A stretch of DNA of 11,574 bases. Origin: Prevotellaceae bacterium (GTDB lineage: Bacteria > Bacteroidota > Bacteroidia > Bacteroidales > Bacteroidaceae). The translations under genes and the position numbers were made by a program. Position 1 is the first letter of the stretch. Each line of letters opens with the position of its first letter. The stretch is taken from the NCBI GenBank assembly GCA_021204165.1, contig JAJPZU010000112.1, forward strand, positions 1-11,574, in the 5' to 3' direction. A model generated the notes under the pieces. That model worked only from the letters and a program-made list of their open reading frames with translations. It was not told the DNA's origin and did no database searches. This document shows positions 2,309 to 11,574 of the stretch, in pieces.

Positions 2309-3835
2309 TTATACTCTCAACACACCCTTCTGCAATCCGAATGTTCTCCAGCGATTGATGGCGGACTGTCCCTGTTTGCATTCAGCCGCCCCACCGGTAT
2401 TTTCCTCCAGATTCATAAGGTAGTCTATGTAGGCGGCAATCACCGCCATCTCTTCGCTCTCGTTCTTGAATCCCGGACGCGGACGCAGACGCTCCGCATT
2501 GCGCTCTATAAAATAGGTGTTGTAGTTTCCTTCACGGAAATCAGGCACATCAATGATGCGGCGCAAGTAGCGTATGTTCGTAGTCAGACCGACAATCTTA
2601 TATTCATACAGCACTCTCCTCATGCGCTCAATGGCATACTGTCTCTCCGTAGCCCAAACGATAAGCTTTCCAATCATCGGATCGTAATGTACGGGAATCT
2701 CATAGCCCTCATATACATAGCTGTCGATTCGGATACCAATGCCGTGAGGCTCTGTGAGCTGAACAATCGTTCCCGGCGAAGGCATGAAGTTATGCTCCGT
2801 ATCCTCCGCACAGATGCGGCACTCTATGGCATGTCCTCTTTGGCGGATATCCTCCTGACGGTAGCCCAGCGGTTGTCCGTCAGCAATAAGAATCTGCTGT
2901 TTCACAAGATCGACGCCGACAACTTCTTCCGTGATAGGATGCTCCACCTGAAGCCGGGTGTTCATTTCAAGGAAATAGAAATGATGGTGCTTATCCACAA
3001 GAAACTCAATGGTGCCGGCACCGATGTAGCCCACCGCTTTTGCCGCAGCCACCGCCTTCTCGCCCATTTCGCGGCGAAGAGTGTCATCAATAAACGGCGA
3101 CGGACTTTCTTCTACTATTTTCTGGTGACGACGCTGCACAGAACATTCGCGGTCGTAAAGATGGATGACATTGCCATGCTTGTCGCCAAGTATCTGAAAC
3201 TCTATGTGGTGAGGCTCCTCGACAAACTTTTCGATATAGACTGTATCATCGCCAAACGAAGCCATCGCCTCGTTCTTTGCCGCATTGTACATCTCTATCA
3301 CATCTTCTTCGCGTTCAATAAGTCTCATGCCTTTTCCGCCGCCACCCATAGAAGCCTTCAGCATCACGGGGAAGCCAATCTTTCGGCACACCTCCAAGGC
3401 TTCCTCGCCACTGCTCAATTGCTCCTGAGTTCCGGGCACAACGGGCACTCCCGCCTTTATCATCTGTATGCGGGCGGAAATCTTGTCGCCCATCAATTCC
3501 ATGGTTTCCGGCTTTGGACCGATGAAGATGATGCCTTCAGCTTCACAACGACGCGCAAACTCGGAATTTTCGGAAAGGAAACCGTATCCCGGGTGAATGG
3601 CATCCACTTTGTGCTTCTTTGCCGCCTCGATAATGTGGTCGATATTCAGGTAGCTGTCTGCCGACGACGCACCGCCGATACACTCTGCTTCGTTTGCAAA
3701 AACGACATGGCGCGACAGACGGTCGGCAGTGCTATAGACAGCCACAGAACGTATGCCCATTTCATAACAAGCACGCATCACCCGAATCGCAATCTCACCG
3801 CGATTGGCAACCAATACTTTTCTTATCATAAACAT
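2309..3835 (-). CDS. accC: Biotin carboxylase (ATP-grasp) subunit of acyl-CoA carboxylase
   Basis: 508-aa ORF with KVLVANRGEIAIRVMRA at the N-terminus, the glycine-rich ATP-grasp loop LKASMGGGGKGMR, and EMNTRLQVEHPITE. M1 or M3 could be the true start. Confidence 0.95.
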   Translation of the reverse strand: MFMIRKVLVANRGEIAIRVMRACYEMGIRSVAVYSTADRLSRHVVFANEAECIGGASSADSYLNIDHIIEAAKKHKVDAIHPGYGFLSENSEFARRCEAEGIIFIGPKPETMELMGDKISARIQMIKAGVPVVPGTQEQLSSGEEALEVCRKIGFPVMLKASMGGGGKGMRLIEREEDVIEMYNAAKNEAMASFGDDTVYIEKFVEEPHHIEFQILGDKHGNVIHLYDRECSVQRRHQKIVEESPSPFIDDTLRREMGEKAVAAAKAVGYIGAGTIEFLVDKHHHFYFLEMNTRLQVEHPITEEVVGVDLVKQQILIADGQPLGYRQEDIRQRGHAIECRICAEDTEHNFMPSPGTIVQLTEPHGIGIRIDSYVYEGYEIPVHYDPMIGKLIVWATERQYAIERMRRVLYEYKIVGLTTNIRYLRRIIDVPDFREGNYNTYFIERNAERLRPRPGFKNESEEMAVIAAYIDYLMNLEENTGGAAECKQGQSAINRWRTFGLQKGVLRV

Positions 3836-4352
3836 CTATATTTGGTTATACACTTTCTTCCATCTCAAAACAAAATATAATACGATATCAGAAAGCACAC
3901 TCCGAGAACCGCATGACAAAGCGGACAACTCACGAAAGAATACATATCCCAAGAATACATGAATACACAAAAAACACCGATATTCCATCCCGGAATCTCA
4001 GCAAAACAGTATTCTCAGTATTTTTCCGGCAGCTCTTATTCCCGAGAGCGGCATCTGAACATCGGCATCGGCAGGTCTTCTGACTTCTCCATTGGCAGCA
4101 CGGCCTTCCCAACCACAATTATTTACAGCCTCACGGCAATAACAAAGGTCAGTGGCACAACATGATGATGTGTTGCCATAAAAAACAGGAGTTACAGCTA
4201 CGGGTATAGTTACAGACTCACACTGTATTCCCTCTTAGTCTGTCCGTCTTTCCTGAGTGCTTCTTCCTGAAGTCCGCCATTCCCGAAATCAGATTAGGCA
4301 AATTCCAGTCTCAACAAGCCTCAAATGAAGAGGACAAGAACCAAATGCGCGG

Positions 4353-4360
4353 CAAAAGTA
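4353..4360 (-). promoter_or_regulatory. Candidate Bacteroidetes-type -7 promoter element (TACTTTTG on the minus strand)
   Basis: Exact match to the TAnnTTTG consensus, read on the minus strand. It lies downstream (in minus-strand sense) of the phased T-tract array and about 515 nt upstream of the accC start. No -33 TTTG is present at the expected spacing. Confidence 0.3.
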
Positions 4361-4424
4361 CACATAAAATCCGAATCCATGCACTTTTTACCATATTTTT
4401 ACTCCAAACATTCTATGAAACTCT

Positions 4425-4512
4425 TGTGTTTTCTCCGGTATTTCCCCTGTGCTTTTCCGGTATTTTCCCGGTGTTCTTCCTGTATTTTTCCTGTATTTTC
4501 CCGGTTTTTTCC
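4425..4512. repeat. Eight tandem 11-bp units (consensus CKGTNTTTTCC), a phased T/A-tract array
   Basis: The units are tgtgttttctc, cggtatttccc, ctgtgcttttc, cggtattttcc, cggtgttcttc, ctgtatttttc, ctgtattttcc and cggttttttcc, in exact 11-bp register. The period is not a multiple of 3, so the repetitive FPVFS-type peptides in the overlapping plus-strand ORFs are artefacts. Confidence 0.85.
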
Positions 4513-4558
4513 ATAAAAAAGCATGGGACATTCCGCTTCTTTCGGAAATGCCCCATGC
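4513..4558 (-). terminator. Rho-independent terminator of the NfeD-like/flotillin operon
   Basis: The minus strand reads GCATGGGGCATTTCCG-aaagaag-CGGAATGTCCCATGC, an approximately 15-bp GC-rich stem with one bulge and one G-U pair. TTTTTTAT follows immediately. The structure starts 21 nt after the flotillin stop codon (4579-4581). Confidence 0.8.
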
Positions 4559-4578
4559 ACCGTTTCTCTTTAGTTTAT

Positions 4579-5955
4579 TCAGTCTTCTACTTCTTCCGCA
4601 TCCACAGCAGGCTCTTCTTTTTTCTTCGCCAGATACTCCGGCAAATTAAGCCCCGCCATATCGAAAAGTTCGTTAAGCGGCGGAACAGACTTCATCAGTC
4701 CGGACACGAAACCGGCTGTAGAGCCTTTTCCGTCTGCACCACCGGCACCATTGTCCCAAACAGTCACATGGTCAATGTTGATACCCTTGACAGCCTCAAC
4801 CTGAGTCTTGACAAGCTCAGGAAGCTTTTCGAGCAGCAACAGCATGTATGCCTTGTTGGCATCTCCTCCGGCAGCCTGAACCATCTTGTCATAACCGGCA
4901 GCCTGCTTCGTCAGCACTTCATACAAACCTTTTGCTTCTGCCTCCATCTTGGCATAAATGGCATCTGCTTCACCCTTTGCATTGACACGCACGCGCTCTG
5001 CTTCCGCCTCCGCTTCGATGATAAGTCGTCTCTTCTCAATCTCCTGCGGAACGAGTACGTTGGCTGTTTCCGTAGAGCGTTCACGTTCTGCACGCGCTTC
5101 CTCAGCCTCGCGTTCTGCCGCGTATGCTTCCTGCAATGCCTTTGCCTGCTGTACTTTTTCTGAGGCTGTGGCTTTACGCTGTGCCTCCGCTTCCTTCTCA
5201 CGGCGATAAGCCTCGGATGCAGCAATGGCAACCTTCGCTTCGTTCTCACCCTTTACGGCTTCCGCATTGGCTTCGGCTGTACGTATGCGGGTTTCTCTCA
5301 CCGCTTCCGCCTTACCGATTTCACCGACTTTATCTTGCTCTGCCACTCTCACTTTTGCCTCATTTATCGCTTTGGCAGCAGCTTCACGTCCGAGAGCCTC
5401 TATATATCCGCTCTCATCTTTTATATCGGTCACGTTCACATTTATCAGACGAAGACCAATCTTTTTCAGTTCCACTTCTACATTGGCAGAAATGCTCTCA
5501 AGAAACTTGTCACGGTCGTTGTTCAGTTCCTCAATACTCATCGTGGCAATTACCAGACGCAACTGTCCGAAAAGAATATCACGCGCCAGTTCCTGTATCT
5601 GTGCAGCACTAAGTCCGAGCAAACGTTCCGCAGCTGCATTCATGCAATCGTGGTCTGTAGATATACCCACAGTGAAGCGGCTTGGCACATCCACACGGAT
5701 GTTCTGTTTGCTGAGCGCATTTGTCAGATTCGCATCAATACTGATTGGTGTAAGGCTAAGATAAGCATAGTCTTCGATTATAGGCCATACGAAAGCACCG
5801 CCGCCATGCACGCAACGTGCCGACGTTTTGCTGCTTTTACTCCCATAAATCACCAAAATTTTGTCCGAAGGACACCGTCTGTAACGATTCACAATGGAAA
5901 CGAACAGCGCAATAGCCACTACAGCGGCAATTACAATAAGATACATAGATTCCAT
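4579..5955 (-). CDS. Flotillin-like SPFH/band-7 family membrane protein (YqiK-like)
   Basis: 458-aa ORF with an N-terminal TM helix (YLIVIAAVVAIALFVSIV), an SPFH-like core, and a long Ala/Glu/Arg-rich coiled-coil (AEREAEEARAERER, IIEAEAEAERVRVNAKGEADA) typical of bacterial flotillins. It is paired with an upstream NfeD-like gene. Confidence 0.9.
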   Translation of the reverse strand: MESMYLIVIAAVVAIALFVSIVNRYRRCPSDKILVIYGSKSSKTSARCVHGGGAFVWPIIEDYAYLSLTPISIDANLTNALSKQNIRVDVPSRFTVGISTDHDCMNAAAERLLGLSAAQIQELARDILFGQLRLVIATMSIEELNNDRDKFLESISANVEVELKKIGLRLINVNVTDIKDESGYIEALGREAAAKAINEAKVRVAEQDKVGEIGKAEAVRETRIRTAEANAEAVKGENEAKVAIAASEAYRREKEAEAQRKATASEKVQQAKALQEAYAAEREAEEARAERERSTETANVLVPQEIEKRRLIIEAEAEAERVRVNAKGEADAIYAKMEAEAKGLYEVLTKQAAGYDKMVQAAGGDANKAYMLLLLEKLPELVKTQVEAVKGINIDHVTVWDNGAGGADGKGSTAGFVSGLMKSVPPLNELFDMAGLNLPEYLAKKKEEPAVDAEEVED

Positions 5956-6039: not shown

Positions 6040-6128
6040 TTCATCTCTCTTGGTCAAAAATTCTCATCCCTTTGGGTCAAAATTTTCATTCCTTTAGTCA
6101 AAAAAATCTCATCCCTTTGGGTCAAAGA
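6040..6128. repeat. Four tandem 21-24-bp direct repeats (TTCTCATCCCTTTGGGTCAAAA-like) in the NfeD-like/flotillin spacer
   Basis: Copies lie at 6040-6060, 6061-6082, 6083-6106 and 6107-6128. Copies 2 and 4 share the exact 20-mer tctcatccctttgggtcaaa (6062-6081 and 6107-6126). Copy 4 overlaps the stop codon of the NfeD-like gene (6122-6124). Confidence 0.85.
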
Positions 6129-6700
6129 TTCTCTACCACCAGCATTTCTCCGCCGACAACATCAGTAATCCGCACCTTGCGCCCTGTGGTTATCGCCTCA
6201 CCCTCTGTAACCGCATCCAGTTCATGCACGGAACCGTTCACACTTATCTGCACTTTTCCTCTGCCGCTCTTCTTCTCCGGAATGCGCAGATAGACATCTG
6301 CCACACGTCCCTTGCAATATTCAATGCGGAAGGCGCCGTTTGCCTCCAGCTTCTTGGTCTGCTTGTAGATAAAGAAGAACATCCACACAAAAAACAAGCC
6401 TACGGCTGCTGCCACGAGTGCCAGCAACACAGCATTACCCATCAGCGAATGCAGACAGACACCTGCCCAGCCGAAGCCCACAAAGAAATTGACAAGGCTC
6501 CTTATAGAGAACAACGACAGTCCTCCTCCCAAATCCATTGTGTCTCCGGCATCAAAATCGACATCTATGTCGCTTGAATCCATTCCGAACAACGTAAGCA
6601 GAAGCTGTATTACAAACACAGCTGACCCGACAAGTGCACAAACCCAGAACACTTGCTGCATAGTTTCAAGTCCACTGAACCAAATTGAAAAACTCTCCAT
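6122..6700 (-). CDS. NfeD/YqiJ-like membrane protein (OB-fold C-terminal tail), partner of the flotillin gene
   Basis: 192-aa ORF with several hydrophobic helices (VFWVCALVGSAVFVIQLLLTLF, LVNFFVGFGWAGVCL, AVLLALVAAAVGLFFVWMFFFIY). The beta-rich C-terminus (GRGKVQISVNGSVHELDAVTEGEAITTGRKVRITDVVGGEMLVV) resembles the NfeD OB domain. The gene order NfeD-then-SPFH is canonical. Confidence 0.8.
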   Translation of the reverse strand: MESFSIWFSGLETMQQVFWVCALVGSAVFVIQLLLTLFGMDSSDIDVDFDAGDTMDLGGGLSLFSIRSLVNFFVGFGWAGVCLHSLMGNAVLLALVAAAVGLFFVWMFFFIYKQTKKLEANGAFRIEYCKGRVADVYLRIPEKKSGRGKVQISVNGSVHELDAVTEGEAITTGRKVRITDVVGGEMLVVENL

Positions 6701-6899
6701 ATTCTAATTAGTTTTACGGTTATATAAATCATATTCTGAAATGATATGTCCACCATCTATTTTACAAAGAGGGAACATCCTTAAAAAAAATAACATTACC
6801 AGACTGCATTTTTCATTAAACACTCTCCTTCTCACTGCATTTTCATAATTCATAAAAGACTCCGATTAATTATTTTAATGATAAATGCCAATCTTATAA

Positions 6900-7580
6900 T
6901 TACCATACATATTGCGATGGATATTTTACTTGCATGAAAGTGAAGCCATGCCCCATTACGCTATGGTGAGAAGTCGTCTGTGCTGTCATATTTGATACAA
7001 TACTGCCAAACACCTGCATATTTGCTCTTGCGTCACCGCGTGAAGCAAGAATGGGTGCATCAGGGACATCGTAATCGCGCCATGCAAATAAGCAGACCTT
7101 TTGGGGATATGTCAAGAGATTTACAGCTGTTGTAGATTCTTGAATCAAAACTTCTATCGATTTAAGCATTTGCTGTCTGGCTTTTGCCCGTTTCCCTTCC
7201 GGGTATTTTCCCGTATTAGGCTCAACATATTTTTCCTCATAACAACACAAGTCACAGAATACAACTTTTTCATGTACCATTCCTGTCTCTGTCATTAATA
7301 AATCACATCGGTCTTTAATATTGGCAGTAGTGCCTGCAAATTGTTCGATATACTTTTCAAAACGAACCACAGCAATTTCCTTGCCATTATTATTCACCTT
7401 CAGAACTTCTTTATTGCATTCATTACGGTAAGCCCTTTCAGGCAATTGCTGACATCGTATGCAACTCTTGGAGTCGGTTTCTGAGAAAGGTTCGCGTATT
7501 CTGTAGAGAGGCACTTCTACTTCTTGTGGATTTATGCCATAATGGAGCGGGAATGCCTTTTTAAGAAAAGATTCTATCAT
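6900..7580 (-). CDS. Hypothetical 226-aa Cys-rich protein, putative effector partner of the upstream ATPase; no family assigned
   Basis: Uninterrupted 226-aa ORF whose ATG overlaps the ATPase stop (ATGA at 7577-7580). It contains CIRC (CxxC) and CDLCC cysteine clusters. Possible catalytic-type strings are LLMTETG, YEEK and WRDYDVPD. I recognise no family signature. Confidence 0.7.
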   Translation of the reverse strand: MIESFLKKAFPLHYGINPQEVEVPLYRIREPFSETDSKSCIRCQQLPERAYRNECNKEVLKVNNNGKEIAVVRFEKYIEQFAGTTANIKDRCDLLMTETGMVHEKVVFCDLCCYEEKYVEPNTGKYPEGKRAKARQQMLKSIEVLIQESTTAVNLLTYPQKVCLFAWRDYDVPDAPILASRGDARANMQVFGSIVSNMTAQTTSHHSVMGHGFTFMQVKYPSQYVW

Positions 7581-8737
7581 ACGTCAAGATTTACAAATTC
7601 ATTATAAATGTGACTCATCAACTCTGAGAGGTCGTAAGTATCTACAATCCACCGTCCGCGTTCATTTTGGACAAGCAAATCTTGTATCTCTCCTTCATAT
7701 ATTCGATAAACAGCCGTGTTAGTCCTGCTCAATTGGGCACGTACTGCATTTGTTTGGTTTAGTAAAACATTCAAGTAGTTAAGAATATACGGACTATGGG
7801 TCGCAAGCATCATATTAATTTCTCGATTTTCATCCGCATGTGTTGCCGACAGCACAATTTCTTCTATGAGTTTGCACTGTGCATCAGGGAACAGACTTAA
7901 CTCAGGTTCTTCAATATGGATATATACTTGTTTCTTCAAATCGCTGGGTTCTGCGACAGCCCGAAACTTGTTCAATCTTTCCATATCATACAGATAGTTC
8001 AGGACAGAGCGCTTGAATGCGTCCTTAAATGAAAAGCCATTTGCGCTGGCATAGTTCTTTACAATCAAAGCGACCGATGCTGACGTTTGAATGCCGGATG
8101 AAGCTTCTCGTAAGTCGATTGGCTCATGACGGCTGTCATTTGGAATGACGGTGTAGCGTGTAGGCTTACCTTTGGGGTGGGTTATCTGAAGCTTCATGCC
8201 TATATAGTCCAACGGTATCTCTTTGTCGTTTGCCGATGCTCTGACAAAATCATTGTTTGTTTCATGAAAATAAAATCCCAAGGTTGCACCTGTGTTTTGG
8301 GATGCCTTTTGCGCCCATGTCGGAATGATGTTTCGGTTTTCAGAGATATAGGACACTTTGTTGAACACCAAATGGTCAGAAGATATAATGGGAAGTCTGC
8401 CTAATTTCTTGTTTTCCATCAAGATGGTGTATTCCGTTTCATCATCCATGACTACACTATACCTAATTACACTTGACGAGTCAAGCATTTTATACATTCC
8501 CGTTTCTTTCATCATCGAATCGAAGCGCATCCTGAAAGGAGAGCTTGTTATTTTTGAATGCTTCAAATAAGAACGGATGTTTGCCATTTTGTACAGATAG
8601 CGCATCATGCTTATCAGCTTCATCAGTGTGCTTTTACCACTTGCGGATTCACCAATCAACACAGTGAATGGCAGAAGGCCAAGGTTCTCAATGTGCTTTA
8701 GCGGACCAATATTTTTAATTGTTATAAATTCCTTCAT
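7577..8737 (-). CDS. Stand-alone ABC/SMC-like ATPase (AAA_15/AAA_21-type), defence-associated architecture
   Basis: Walker A is LIGESASGKSTL, the Walker-B-like strand is VYIHIEEPELSLFP, and the H-loop-like motif is LATHSPYILNYL. The ORF track extends to 8815, but MKEFITIKNIGPL (ATG at 8735-8737) matches the usual N-terminus of this ATPase class, so the 26-aa extension is probably not translated. Confidence 0.88.
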   Translation of the reverse strand: MKEFITIKNIGPLKHIENLGLLPFTVLIGESASGKSTLMKLISMMRYLYKMANIRSYLKHSKITSSPFRMRFDSMMKETGMYKMLDSSSVIRYSVVMDDETEYTILMENKKLGRLPIISSDHLVFNKVSYISENRNIIPTWAQKASQNTGATLGFYFHETNNDFVRASANDKEIPLDYIGMKLQITHPKGKPTRYTVIPNDSRHEPIDLREASSGIQTSASVALIVKNYASANGFSFKDAFKRSVLNYLYDMERLNKFRAVAEPSDLKKQVYIHIEEPELSLFPDAQCKLIEEIVLSATHADENREINMMLATHSPYILNYLNVLLNQTNAVRAQLSRTNTAVYRIYEGEIQDLLVQNERGRWIVDTYDLSELMSHIYNEFVNLDV

Positions 8738-8916
8738 AATAAAGTTTTGTTTTTCAAACAATCTGATAAAGTATGATTTACCCAATAAAGATACTAATTT
8801 GTACTTCAACAGCAAAAAAAATCCTGTATTGTGACGCTAAAAACGTGAATTTATTACAGAAATGGCACTTTGTCATGTCAAATCAGAAGGTGAAGTGTCA
8901 AAACAGGAGATACAAT

Positions 8917-8924
8917 CCAAACTT
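8917..8924 (-). promoter_or_regulatory. Candidate -7 promoter element (TAAGTTTG on the minus strand) upstream of the ATPase cassette
   Basis: Matches TAnnTTTG on the minus strand. It lies in the AT-rich spacer between the ParB-like stop (8957) and the ATPase start, about 180 nt upstream of the ATG at 8737. Motif match only. Confidence 0.25.
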
Positions 8925-8956
8925 ATTGTTGCATGAACATCTGGGGCCAGAGCCGC

Positions 8957-9478
8957 CTAATCCTCCAGCCAGTCCTCCGACAAACTGAAGTCCTTGTCCG
9001 CAAACAAGTCCGCCAGCCCGGAAATCTGCTTCAGCCTCAACAGCTCATCCTTGTCCATGCCGATATTGCGCATAATCCACGCATCCGACATGCCCGCAGA
9101 CGTAAGCTCCGACACGATGTGGCTCATCAGCTCTATCGTGTGCGTACCCCTCGCCCTGTTATGACGTATGGTCGAAGCCATTCTGCACGAAATATCCTTG
9201 TCTATCACCGACACGGGAAGCATCCCCTTCTCCCTGTCATAAATTCGTTTCGATGTCTTCATCACCAGATAGCGGTGGAATCCATCTACAATCTCATACT
9301 TGTCCTCGTCCTTCAAGTAATAGCACACGCAAGGCATGGTGTACCCGTCCTCCCATATCGACAGTTCCAACAGCTTCATCTCCGGAGGAGCCACCATGTT
9401 GGGGTTATAATTGTTCGCCACCACTTTCTCGATAGGCACTGCTATCACATTATATACCGGACTCTTAAAATTTTCCAT
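8957..9478 (-). CDS. ParB/sulfiredoxin-fold domain protein (IbrB-like / DndB-like)
   Basis: 173-aa ORF with ANNYNPN and EIVDGFHRYLV (a ParB-type DGxHR box). Its start overlaps the end of the PAPS-reductase-family gene by 14 nt. Confidence 0.85.
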   Translation of the reverse strand: MENFKSPVYNVIAVPIEKVVANNYNPNMVAPPEMKLLELSIWEDGYTMPCVCYYLKDEDKYEIVDGFHRYLVMKTSKRIYDREKGMLPVSVIDKDISCRMASTIRHNRARGTHTIELMSHIVSELTSAGMSDAWIMRNIGMDKDELLRLKQISGLADLFADKDFSLSEDWLED

Positions 9479-10763
9479 ATTCCAATGCTTTATATTTTCT
9501 CATCACACTTTCTCGTCTGCTCTTCTCATTCTTGGTCAGGGTAAAGCCCATGTACTTACACACATGGTCGTTTCTCAGTATGCAGATGCAGACACGCTTG
9601 AATGTCGGAATCTCCCGAAACTCCGGAATGTCTATGTCGTCAACGTACTCCATCATGACCGGTCTTTTGTTAGTGCGGTATGCCGTGGTCGTCCCAACCG
9701 TAAACTTCACCCCTGCCGCACGCAATTTTTCAATGGTCTCATCGCTCAGACATCCGCCTTTCGTCCTCCAGAATCTCATGCTCACACCTATCTTGTCCAG
9801 ATAATTGCGGCACACCTTCTCCGGCAACGTGTCCAGCAGAAAGTACATGTACTTTTTCCAAGAAAATCCGTGAGGACATTTTATCGACTTCCATCCCATA
9901 GCCGTCGTATTCCCGTAGATGCCGGAAAAATTGACACCATTGACACGGCTGACCATCCGCCCCCACATGTCGGGGTCTATCGCCCGATAGACACTCAGCG
10001 TAGGTATGGCATGAGAAATGAACGGACTTGCCACCCGCTGCCGCCCAATCGGAATGCCCGCACGCGAATAAAGGTCATAAAGCGGATTATAAGTCCATCC
10101 GAATTTTCCGTTTGCCGTCCAGATGTCAGATGTTTTCCAGTCATAAAGCGGATAAGCGTTATACACATGTGCAGCAAGCTTATGTGTCCATTTGTAATGC
10201 GAAAGCCGCCGGTAGTTCTTGGCATTGTGTATGGCCGTCCACCGGTTAAAACTCTCCTGCGTCCTTATGCCTACAAGACAACATATACGTTCACATTTCT
10301 TCCGGTTGCGCAGCCAAGGGGCGAAAAGATACTGGAAGTCATAGTCCCACAAGGCATCAGTGAAGAAATTGAAATCGGCTGCCGTATAAGCCCCCTCAGG
10401 CATTTCCCTCACCCATATATCCTTCTCCGATTCTCCCCAAGGTCTCCAATACGACTGGTGCATGGATGTACAGGTCATGACTTTGAAGGGCACGCAACAA
10501 TGGTACACCTCCAGAATGTCGCGATTCTCCGACAGGGTACGGCGCACATACTCCGTGGTCTGCCGGTACTGCACCTCGTAGTCCATGTGGAACACACCCA
10601 GCTTACGTCCCGGAGCATACCTCCGTATATAGTCTATGCACAGATTCAACAACACTCCGCTGTCCTTGCCACCCGAAAACGAGACATACACATAATCGAA
10701 ATAATCGAATATGATCTTCAGCCTCCTTTGCACTGCTTCATAAACATCAAGTTGCCTAATCAT
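9465..10763 (-). CDS. Phosphoadenosine-phosphosulfate (PAPS) reductase-family PP-loop protein with extended C-terminal domain (IbrA-like / DndC-like)
   Basis: 432-aa ORF with the PP-loop ATP-pyrophosphatase motif VSFSGGKDSGVLL near the N-terminus. The long Trp/Tyr-rich C-terminal extension resembles IbrA-type proteins. It is paired with a ParB-like gene. Confidence 0.88.
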   Translation of the reverse strand: MIRQLDVYEAVQRRLKIIFDYFDYVYVSFSGGKDSGVLLNLCIDYIRRYAPGRKLGVFHMDYEVQYRQTTEYVRRTLSENRDILEVYHCCVPFKVMTCTSMHQSYWRPWGESEKDIWVREMPEGAYTAADFNFFTDALWDYDFQYLFAPWLRNRKKCERICCLVGIRTQESFNRWTAIHNAKNYRRLSHYKWTHKLAAHVYNAYPLYDWKTSDIWTANGKFGWTYNPLYDLYSRAGIPIGRQRVASPFISHAIPTLSVYRAIDPDMWGRMVSRVNGVNFSGIYGNTTAMGWKSIKCPHGFSWKKYMYFLLDTLPEKVCRNYLDKIGVSMRFWRTKGGCLSDETIEKLRAAGVKFTVGTTTAYRTNKRPVMMEYVDDIDIPEFREIPTFKRVCICILRNDHVCKYMGFTLTKNEKSRRESVMRKYKALEYGKF

Positions 10764-11164
10764 TCCTTACGTCCTCCGGCATATACCATCTTGTCATAAT
10801 TCTTCCATTCCCTATGTGTCCTGAAGCCGTTGCGTGCAAAGTCAGCCACATGACGCTTGTGTACGACTGCGGTCAGCACAGTCCTGCTCACCGACTCCGC
10901 CACCACCCTGTCGAGCAGAGCATCAATGAGCAAAGAATCGTCGCCCTTGATATAATAATTGTCAATACAGGCTTCACGCTCTTTCTCCTTTACCGGAATG
11001 AATCCGATTACCTCCTTTTTCTCTATGGCCACATACCATTTGTGATGACGGGAGGTCTTGAAGGGATAATTGTTGTTGAGCCTCAACACTGCCGCATTCA
11101 TCACCAGCGGTGCCACCAGCTCATAAAGGCGGGAAGATGTGCCTTCTAAAATCTCAATATTCAT
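10760..11164 (-). CDS. Small GNAT-like (acetyltransferase-fold) protein, function unknown
   Basis: 134-aa ORF whose stop overlaps the next start (ATGA at 10760-10763). The C-terminal VADFARNGFR resembles the GNAT motif-B region, but the usual R/QxxGxG/A acetyl-CoA loop is not evident. The fold call is therefore tentative. Confidence 0.55.
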   Translation of the reverse strand: MNIEILEGTSSRLYELVAPLVMNAAVLRLNNNYPFKTSRHHKWYVAIEKKEVIGFIPVKEKEREACIDNYYIKGDDSLLIDALLDRVVAESVSRTVLTAVVHKRHVADFARNGFRTHREWKNYDKMVYAGGRKE

Positions 11165-11312
11165 AAAAACAGTCTTTTTGATTCTTGCCTATCCCGACTT
11201 CCGAATCATGAGAGTCTCGGTCTTATAAAGAAGATACATCAGTTGCCACATCCGTAATCTATAAACAGCAGACATCATGAACCATCAAAGTCAAGTAATG
11301 CAATAAACTATG

Positions 11313-11320
11313 CAAAAGTA
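11313..11320 (-). promoter_or_regulatory. Candidate -7 promoter element (TACTTTTG on the minus strand) for the GNAT-like/PAPS-reductase/ParB operon
   Basis: Exact TAnnTTTG match on the minus strand, about 150 nt upstream of the first gene of the operon (ATG at 11162-11164). No other gene lies between. No -33 element is seen. Confidence 0.35.
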
Positions 11321-11424
11321 CGACAAATACCTTTTTTATTCTACCCGATGTCATATTTTTTACAAGAAGAATACTTAGATACTGTTTTTTAGAAGCCGTT
11401 TGTTTAAATGAATGTATTCAACAA

Positions 11425-11574
11425 TTTTAAGCTTGTCTATTTAACGGACTCCTCATGTGTATTTAGTGGAATGTTTTTATATTTGGTGGGGTGTTCTCGG
11501 CAGACTCCTCATGTGTGAATTGTATGTGTTAGCAGACGTTTTCGACAGACTCCTCCGTCGCTACCGCGCCACCT
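11425..11574. repeat. Right arm of the window-bracketing inverted repeat: 37-nt terminal core (11538-11574) plus three inverted iterations of the GAGGAGTCTG motif
   Basis: CAGACTCCTC / CGGACTCCTC occurs at 11546-11555, 11501-11510 and 11445-11454. The reverse complement of 11425-11457 (catgaggagtccgttaaatagacaagcttaaaa) aligns with the left arm at 97-129. The core ends exactly at the last base of the window. Confidence 0.85.

Follow-up and report, generated by a model that had tools for sequence, protein, structure and literature searches.

Several phage-defence systems consist of an ATP-binding cassette (ABC)-type ATPase of the AAA_15/AAA_21 families followed by an overlapping gene for a small effector, as in HEC-01, HEC-02, HEC-03, PARIS (AriA/AriB) and Septu (PtuA/PtuB). 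For the HEC-01 (TOPRIM), HEC-02 (NERD) and HEC-03 (PIN) pairs the activity has been validated, and both genes are required for defence (10.1101/2024.01.29.577857). The defence candidates termed PDC came from another source, 'guilt-by-embedding', being genes that lie inside operons of Hma, BREX, DISARM or type I restriction–modification (R-M) systems (Payne et al., bioRxiv 10.1101/2024.01.29.577857). A different principle operates in Dnd, Ssp and BREX type 4, where DNA phosphorothioate is produced by DndC, SspD and BrxP, each working with a partner P-loop NTPase (PMC12914056). Here we analysed an 11,574-nucleotide (nt) stretch of DNA from a Prevotellaceae bacterium (the complete contig JAJPZU010000112.1 of a metagenome-assembled genome, hereafter the window), in which five genes on the minus strand recall both kinds of system: a trio encoding the GNAT-fold protein p134, an IbrA-like PP-loop ATP-pyrophosphatase and a ParB-like protein, and a cassette encoding an ABC-type ATPase and a 226-residue protein, p226 (Table 1). 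A first-pass annotation had described the five genes as co-directional, with PAPS-reductase, ParB-like and ATPase domains, as open reading frame (ORF) calls and Pfam matches bore out. It had further suggested that they might form one Dnd/Ssp-like system for self/non-self discrimination, and had set against this an independent, later insertion of the ATPase cassette, or simple adjacency. The comparisons below strongly favour two evolutionarily and functionally independent modules that became neighbours through an insertion event.

Empty and occupied sites

Segment 6799–8958 differed in composition from its surroundings. Its G+C content was 39.3%, whereas the trio had 49.1% and the housekeeping genes further downstream 48.5%, and G+C at third codon positions was 35–44% in the insert and 58–71% in its neighbours. 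The drop in G+C near position 8950 noted in the first-pass annotation is therefore real.

In two metagenome contigs, L047 (IbrA-like protein 94% identical) and L046 (90%), p192 came straight after the trio, and then flotillin, biotin carboxylase, biotin carboxyl carrier protein and carboxyltransferase, in the order of the window. Nucleotide homology between the window and L047 extended from 11361 to 8959, the stop codon of the ParB-like gene, and resumed at 6798; the 2,160 nt of the window between 8959 and 6798 corresponded to 172 nt in L047. An occupied contig, L032, was 98.2% identical to the empty L047 over approximately 9.1 kb of flanking sequence, and the comparison of the two gave the same boundaries, the empty contig having 166 nt where the occupied one has 2,160. 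The window itself shared approximately 91% identity with each of them. At the more distant outgroup L046 (81% identity) the site was also empty, and the short ancestral spacer was common to L046 and L047. Since the flanks of occupied and empty contigs were 98.2% identical, the cassette is, as judged from these alignments, a strain-level presence/absence polymorphism at this site. The occupied and empty alleles also constitute a clean natural control.

By the same alignments, arrival of the cassette replaced approximately 170 nt of spacer at the point where the coding sequence of the trio ends, and the whole of the 219-nt sequence that now separates the modules is assigned to the insert, not to the trio. 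No convincing target-site duplications, and no convincing inverted or terminal repeats, were found at the insert boundaries. A short repeat, GAAAATGCAGT, close to the right junction is probably left over from the spacer. What the cassette had in common with other loci was limited to its two ORFs, the non-coding flanks being conserved only in L032 and its companion L033. The segment is a laterally acquired 2.16-kb cassette that landed immediately after the ParB stop codon. Both the empty sites and the composition support the independent, later insertion that had been raised at first pass.

Distribution of the two modules

Outside the lineage of the window, 27 cassette loci were found, 26 in a scan of one genome per species and one in a metagenome. 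In every one of them the p226 gene was immediately preceded, on the same strand and usually with an overlap, by a homologue of the ATPase. Within the locus sequence, none of the 27 contained a homologue of any of the three trio proteins; 14 of these loci extended at least 6.4 kb upstream. Conversely, neither the ATPase nor p226 was found in any of 88 trio loci (L034–L041 and L046–L125), and among the 61 of these with at least 2.3 kb of downstream sequence, 21 distinct downstream contexts were represented. Co-occurrence was judged throughout by adjacency at the locus. Both modules were present together only in the window's own lineage, that is, in the window with L001 and in L032/L033 (IbrA-like proteins 94% identical). 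The comparative check suggested at first pass, whether the five genes travel together, thus shows modules that occur independently, and simple adjacency alone explains the arrangement.

These distributions bear directly on the proposal of a single system, in which, on the pattern of Dnd/Ssp or BREX type 4, the trio would mark host DNA and the ATPase with p226 would restrict DNA that lacks the mark. The common strand and the short spacer without a recognisable terminator would fit such a system, as would persistence of the arrangement in two lineages 91% identical, and the phosphorothioating proteins resemble the IbrA-like protein in their PAPS-reductase/PP-loop domain, with BrxP and SspB/DndB also having a ParB-like partner domain. 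The IbrA-like protein gave weak, partial PADLOC matches to BrxP (26 bits, E = 5e-7, residues 20–110) and to DndC (E = 3e-6, over a stretch of 77 residues only). The window protein differs, however, in carrying DUF3440, which defines another family, and these matches were below threshold: the DndC model TIGR03183 scored 18.1 bits against a cutoff of 290.4. Assignment of the trio as DndC, SspD or BrxP was ruled out by the curated thresholds. Among the window ORFs there were no DndA/D/E partners, no iscS/cysteine desulfurase, no dndFGH, and no SspA/B/C/E or BrxC/Z/L genes. In addition, the work establishing phosphorothioation by BREX type 4 reported no phosphorothioate in a Bacteroides isolate with a PAPS-reductase gene adjoining an ATPase, without dndD (PMC12914056). 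Set beside the compositionally foreign cassette, its absence from the contig with 98.2%-identical flanks and an unchanged trio, and its absence from all 88 other trio loci, these points leave a five-gene system very improbable, and the comparative data largely refute it. The result averts a false annotation of a 'five-gene Dnd-like system'.

Table 1. Positions of the features discussed. Coordinates refer to the window unless another locus is named.
Feature	Position	Strand	Remarks
Promoter-like motif TACTTTTG	11313–11320	−	TAnnTTTG match in the intergenic region ahead of the trio; approximately 150 nt upstream of p134
p134	10760–11164	−	GNAT-fold; first gene of the trio; ORF call, 134 aa
IbrA-like PP-loop ATP-pyrophosphatase	9465–10763	−	PAPS_reduct + DUF3440; 432 aa
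ParB/Srx-like (IbrB-like) protein	8957–9478	−	Last gene of the trio; 173 aa
Inserted low-G+C segment	6799–8958	−	2,160 nt; contains the two-gene cassette
Promoter-like motif TAAGTTTG	8918–8925	−	TAnnTTTG match, Bacteroidetes-type −7; ahead of the cassette, within the insert, 181 nt upstream of the ATPase ATG
ABC-type (AAA_15/AAA_21) ATPase	7577–8737	−	PDC-M29A-like; 386 aa
p226	6900–7580	−	226 aa
3′ tail of the insert	6786–6900	−	Long imperfect hairpin, then T8 tract; right junction
p192	6122–6700	−	Membrane protein, 192 aa; no Pfam match; synteny anchor with flotillin
Flotillin (Band_7)	4579–5955	−	Follows p192
Intergenic TAnnTTTG match	4353–4360	−	Ahead of the carboxylase genes
Nested type III arrangement in L006	2913–13934		

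The ATPase and p226

The start of the ATPase was placed at ATG 8737, the residue from which homologues aligned in all loci with a readable start. The gene caller likewise gave 386 residues; a longer alternative, extending to 8815, begins at an upstream TTG. The protein matched Pfam AAA_21 (4e-14) and AAA_15 (2.5e-12) and contained a Walker A motif (GESASGKST), a signature-like motif (ASSGIQ), a Walker B motif (IHIEEPE) and an H-loop (ATHSP). Among PADLOC models it matched PDC-M29A best (2e-26, 91 bits), covering profile positions 4–337 of 410, and the homologue in L006 matched the same model at 2e-31. Weaker PADLOC matches were to AriA, NsnB, HEC-01A, HEC-02A, PtuA and others, and DndD did not appear among the 25 best PADLOC matches listed. 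A sequence search of the PDB gave no match.

The partner, p226, matched no Pfam, PADLOC or NCBIfam model, even at lenient thresholds. Its AlphaFold model was confident (pLDDT, a per-residue confidence score, 83.5; pTM, a template-modelling score, 0.81), and the top three Foldseek matches were McrC chains. The match to McrC chain 6hz4_M (336 residues) spanned only approximately 105 residues, and similarity to McrC was not detected at the sequence level. The predicted structure falls within the restriction-endonuclease-like folds, and p226 probably adopts a PD-(D/E)xK-type, McrC-like nuclease fold, graded no higher because the Foldseek scores were modest. The resemblance does not extend to McrBC as a whole, since the partner in the window is an ABC-type AAA_15/AAA_21 ATPase and not the AAA+ GTPase McrB, and p226 is shorter than the McrC chain.

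The p226 family is small, with 98 clusters at 90% identity, compared with 5,731 clusters for the IbrA-like family (E ≤ 1e-10). When 1.84 billion cluster representatives were searched with a profile, 343 relatives were retrieved, all of approximately 210–230 residues. Residues D36, D93, K130 and R168 were invariant across these 343 sequences, and C40, C55, C92 and C113 were nearly so. Residues E75, D93, D110 and K130 were conserved, and no canonical (D/E)xK triplet was. This pattern of conservation suggests an acidic active site together with a four-cysteine metal site.

As in PDC-M29 (A + B), the cassette consists of two genes, the ATPase matches PDC-M29A over most of the profile, and in four species the pair lies inside other defence operons. 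The likeness of the second gene is remote: of 43 remote relatives that the p226 profile recovered, 6 matched PDC-M29B (best E = 1e-8), so that homology is transitive only, and neither p226 nor its 36 aligned close relatives reached the PDC-M29B model. Because of this failure to match, the cassette is classed, from its profile matches, as a divergent branch of PDC-M29, a phage-defence candidate family. A literature search by the name PDC-M29 found no paper. The assignment would extend this candidate to a divergent branch in gut Bacteroidales, with an effector of predicted McrC-like fold and four conserved cysteines.

The architecture also agrees with that of HEC-01/02/03, PARIS and Septu, in that an AAA_15/AAA_21 ABC-type ATPase is followed by an overlapping gene for a small effector, the ATPase gives weak matches to AriA, HEC-01A, HEC-02A and PtuA, and the pairs are mobile and often embedded. 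The effectors differ, with the predicted McrC-like PD-(D/E)xK-type fold and four conserved cysteines of p226 in place of TOPRIM, NERD, PIN or HNH; effector models of the HEC, PARIS and Septu systems gave no match to p226 apart from stray single-member hits. By analogy with these systems, the ATPase would act as a sensor or regulator subunit, and p226 as a nuclease effector that is held and then released or activated on infection. The outcome might be abortive infection or degradation of invading nucleic acid. We regard the cassette as a candidate phage-defence system that lies next to the trio by chance.

Contexts of the cassette in other genomes

The pair was located between the Mod and Res genes of a type III system, with gaps of 6–21 nt, in L006, L007, L008 and L028, which represent four species. 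The flanking methyltransferase (approximately 1,015 residues) matched PADLOC MTase_III at 5e-213 and the restriction subunit (approximately 1,080 residues) matched REase_III at 7e-208. In L006, L007 and L008 a DrmD/HmaA-like SNF2 helicase was encoded upstream. The pair can thus ride inside a real modification–restriction operon. The modification gene there is a DNA methyltransferase and not IbrA-like, which is a further point against a single system formed with the trio. Embedding in type III operons of four species fits the 'guilt-by-embedding' origin of the PDC systems, and the nesting between mod and res adds embedding-based support for a defence role.

The remaining contexts were varied. 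Neighbours included genes from polysaccharide-type loci (glycosyltransferase, DegT and UDP-glucose dehydrogenase), as well as QueA, HPPK, an HNH endonuclease gene and an insertion sequence (IS) transposase. No recurrent third gene was found beyond the type III Mod, Res and SNF2 genes (four loci) and UDP-glucose dehydrogenase (capsule-type loci). In contigs of a human-gut lineage (L042–L045, approximately 2900–4770) the cassette was located approximately 650 nt upstream of a DDE_Tnp_1 IS transposase gene, and these contigs ended within approximately 500 nt upstream of the ATPase gene, which suggests a repeat-rich, mobile neighbourhood. Five cassettes (L015, L018, L021, L023 and L025) came from metagenome-assembled genomes labelled Clostridiales, Oscillospiraceae, Vescimonas or Anaerovoracaceae, all Clostridia. 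In three of them (L018, L021 and L023) the Bacteroidetes-type motif TAnnTTTG occurred 43–46 nt upstream of the ATPase. Cross-phylum transfer is possible; so is mis-binning of the contigs, because of these Bacteroidetes-type motifs.

Such mobility raises the question of whether the cassette might be a selfish, addiction or toxin–antitoxin (TA)-like module, or else an R-M accessory without stand-alone function, persisting because it is hard to lose or neutral. The Pfam name of AAA_21, 'putative AbiEii toxin, type IV TA system', points in this direction, and so does movement of the pair as two bare ORFs without conserved flanks, as well as the adjoining IS transposase in one set of loci and the position inside type III R-M operons in four. 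Against this reading, the pair stands alone in 23 of the 27 loci, in unrelated contexts. Presence/absence between contigs with 98%-identical flanks shows that the cassette can be lost or replaced, and architecturally equivalent pairs of an ABC ATPase and a nuclease protected against phages in experiments. In any case, no sharp line divides TA or abortive-infection modules from defence systems. Taken together, a selfish or accessory module seems unlikely, though less so than a five-gene system, and a candidate defence cassette is the preferred interpretation of the pair.

The resident trio operon

The 432-residue protein matched Pfam DUF3440 (1e-87) and PAPS_reduct (3e-12) and contained an SGGKDS PP-loop motif; a PDB sequence search found no match for it. 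The 173-residue protein gave a weak match to ParB_N (1.4e-3), in addition to Noc matches, and contained a DGFHR motif. The first protein of the trio, p134, was assigned to the GNAT fold; an NCBI protein with exactly its sequence comes from a contig of a Prevotellaceae metagenome-assembled genome. It matched no Pfam GNAT model, scored 17 bits against a cutoff of 86 for rimI, and did not carry the acetyl-CoA-binding motif A (R/Q-x-x-G-x-G/A), the expected position reading YIKGDDS. Because motif A and the sequence-model match both fail, acetyltransferase activity of p134 is uncertain.

Among the 88 trio loci (70–94% IbrA identity), a p134 homologue was present in 86 and the ParB-like gene, with 76–97% identity, in 87. 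The IbrA-like protein was 70–76% identical across Xylanibacter, Muribaculum, Bacteroides, Paraprevotella and Parabacteroides. The neighbours were housekeeping genes, e.g. those for ribosomal protein L19, SecG, LptE, a DEAD-box helicase, alpha-amylase and GlnRS. The trio is a resident, translationally coupled operon conserved in several families of Bacteroidales within housekeeping neighbourhoods. The label 'accessory' given to all five genes at first pass is therefore wrong for the first three.

Phages carry related genes. A Streptococcus phage encodes a counterpart 55% identical to the IbrA-like protein, also followed by a ParB-like gene, and matches were found to 90 Flavobacterium phage records; Flavobacterium phage FCL-2 has been described as carrying IbrA and IbrB (PMC4541368). 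The 134-residue gene upstream of the PAPS-reductase gene in the Streptococcus phage was considered as a relative of p134 and proved unrelated (E = 9.7). Overall, the trio looks like a near-core operon shared with phages. As in IbrA/IbrB-type pairs, a PAPS_reduct + DUF3440 protein is followed by an overlapping ParB-like gene; the window pair differs in being chromosomal, Bacteroidales-wide and preceded by a GNAT-fold gene. By domains and adjacency, the trio is classed with the IbrA/IbrB-type family, supplemented by a GNAT-fold gene. Judging by titles and abstracts, the papers retrieved for DUF3440 held nothing relevant. The trio may form an adenylating, NTP-dependent complex that modifies or binds nucleic acid, like E. 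coli IbrA/IbrB and the equivalent phage pairs. Bacteroidales-wide and phage-shared, the GNAT/IbrA-like/ParB-like operon would be worth studying for its own sake.

Transcription signals

With the ATPase starting at ATG 8737, the spacer between trio and cassette is 219 nt (8738–8956), the first of the two lengths given in the first-pass annotation, and not the 141 nt of the longer ORF. The view that it holds no convincing terminator also stood: none was found in a pattern scan, and the spacer folded no more stably than shuffled sequences (z = +0.79). A TAnnTTTG motif is present in the spacer, as had been reported, one base away from the original placement at 8917–8924.

Upstream TAnnTTTG motifs are a common feature of the cassette. 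Of the 28 distinct cassette loci with enough upstream sequence, 16 had the motif 15–150 nt upstream of the ATPase, compared with a chance expectation of approximately 0.09 per locus by our own estimate. This excess argues that the ATPase–p226 pair usually brings or acquires its own promoter. Across the window as a whole TAnnTTTG was no commoner than chance would give (10 matches; expectation 7.1 ± 2.9). On the minus strand, three of five matches were in the three intergenic regions ahead of minus-strand operons, consistent with these being real Bacteroidetes promoters. The match upstream of p134 is likely, from its position, to be the promoter of the trio operon. Whether the motif within the spacer functions as a promoter here is uncertain. 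At the other end of the cassette, the region 6780–6905 (minus strand) folded at −22.1 kcal/mol (z = −1.63) and was followed by UUAUUUUUUUU. The hairpin and T8 tract are suggestive only, as a possible cassette terminator at which the transcript may end.

The cassette could be transcribed from the 8918–8925 motif, by read-through from the trio, or both. Any shared transcription would be a by-product of the landing site rather than functional coupling. Four observations weigh against treating the modules as independent neighbours. First, cassette and flanks have diverged alike between the window and L032 (approximately 89–92% identity), which indicates that the arrangement has persisted for some time in the lineage. 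Second, the trio is widespread in Bacteroidales, and cassette-bearing genomes may carry it elsewhere. Third, as no terminator separates trio and cassette in the window, co-transcription by read-through is possible. Fourth, by alignment, the promoter-like motif is not conserved in L032, the closest cassette-bearing relative, where the copy at 8918–8925 reads TGAGTTTG. In the strongest form of coupling, the cassette would be linked both transcriptionally and functionally to the IbrA-like/ParB-like operon in this lineage, with a trio-dependent nucleic-acid modification serving as the self mark that restrains the ATPase–nuclease pair. If true, this would represent a newly assembled modification–restriction system soon after its origin; we consider it a very long shot. 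Independent modules, brought together by insertion, remain the favoured interpretation.

Gene layout and minor features

Within each module the genes overlap, by 4 nt between p134 and the 432-residue protein, 14 nt between the latter and the ParB-like gene, and 4 nt between the ATPase and p226. Downstream of p226 the order is p192, flotillin, biotin carboxylase, biotin carboxyl carrier protein and carboxyltransferase. The arrangement of p192 and flotillin resembles NfeD–flotillin operons. IbrA/IbrB-type pairs are also characterised by a regulatory effect on prophage (eib) gene expression; the window contained no prophage genes. The gene finder also called a 49-residue ORF at 6704–6853 (minus strand); because it spans the right junction of the insert (approximately 6798), it is chimeric and probably spurious. 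Upstream of the promoter region of the trio, at 11420–11574 (minus strand), three spaced copies of a motif containing GAGGAGTC[TC]G were observed, for which Tandem Repeats Finder reported no array.

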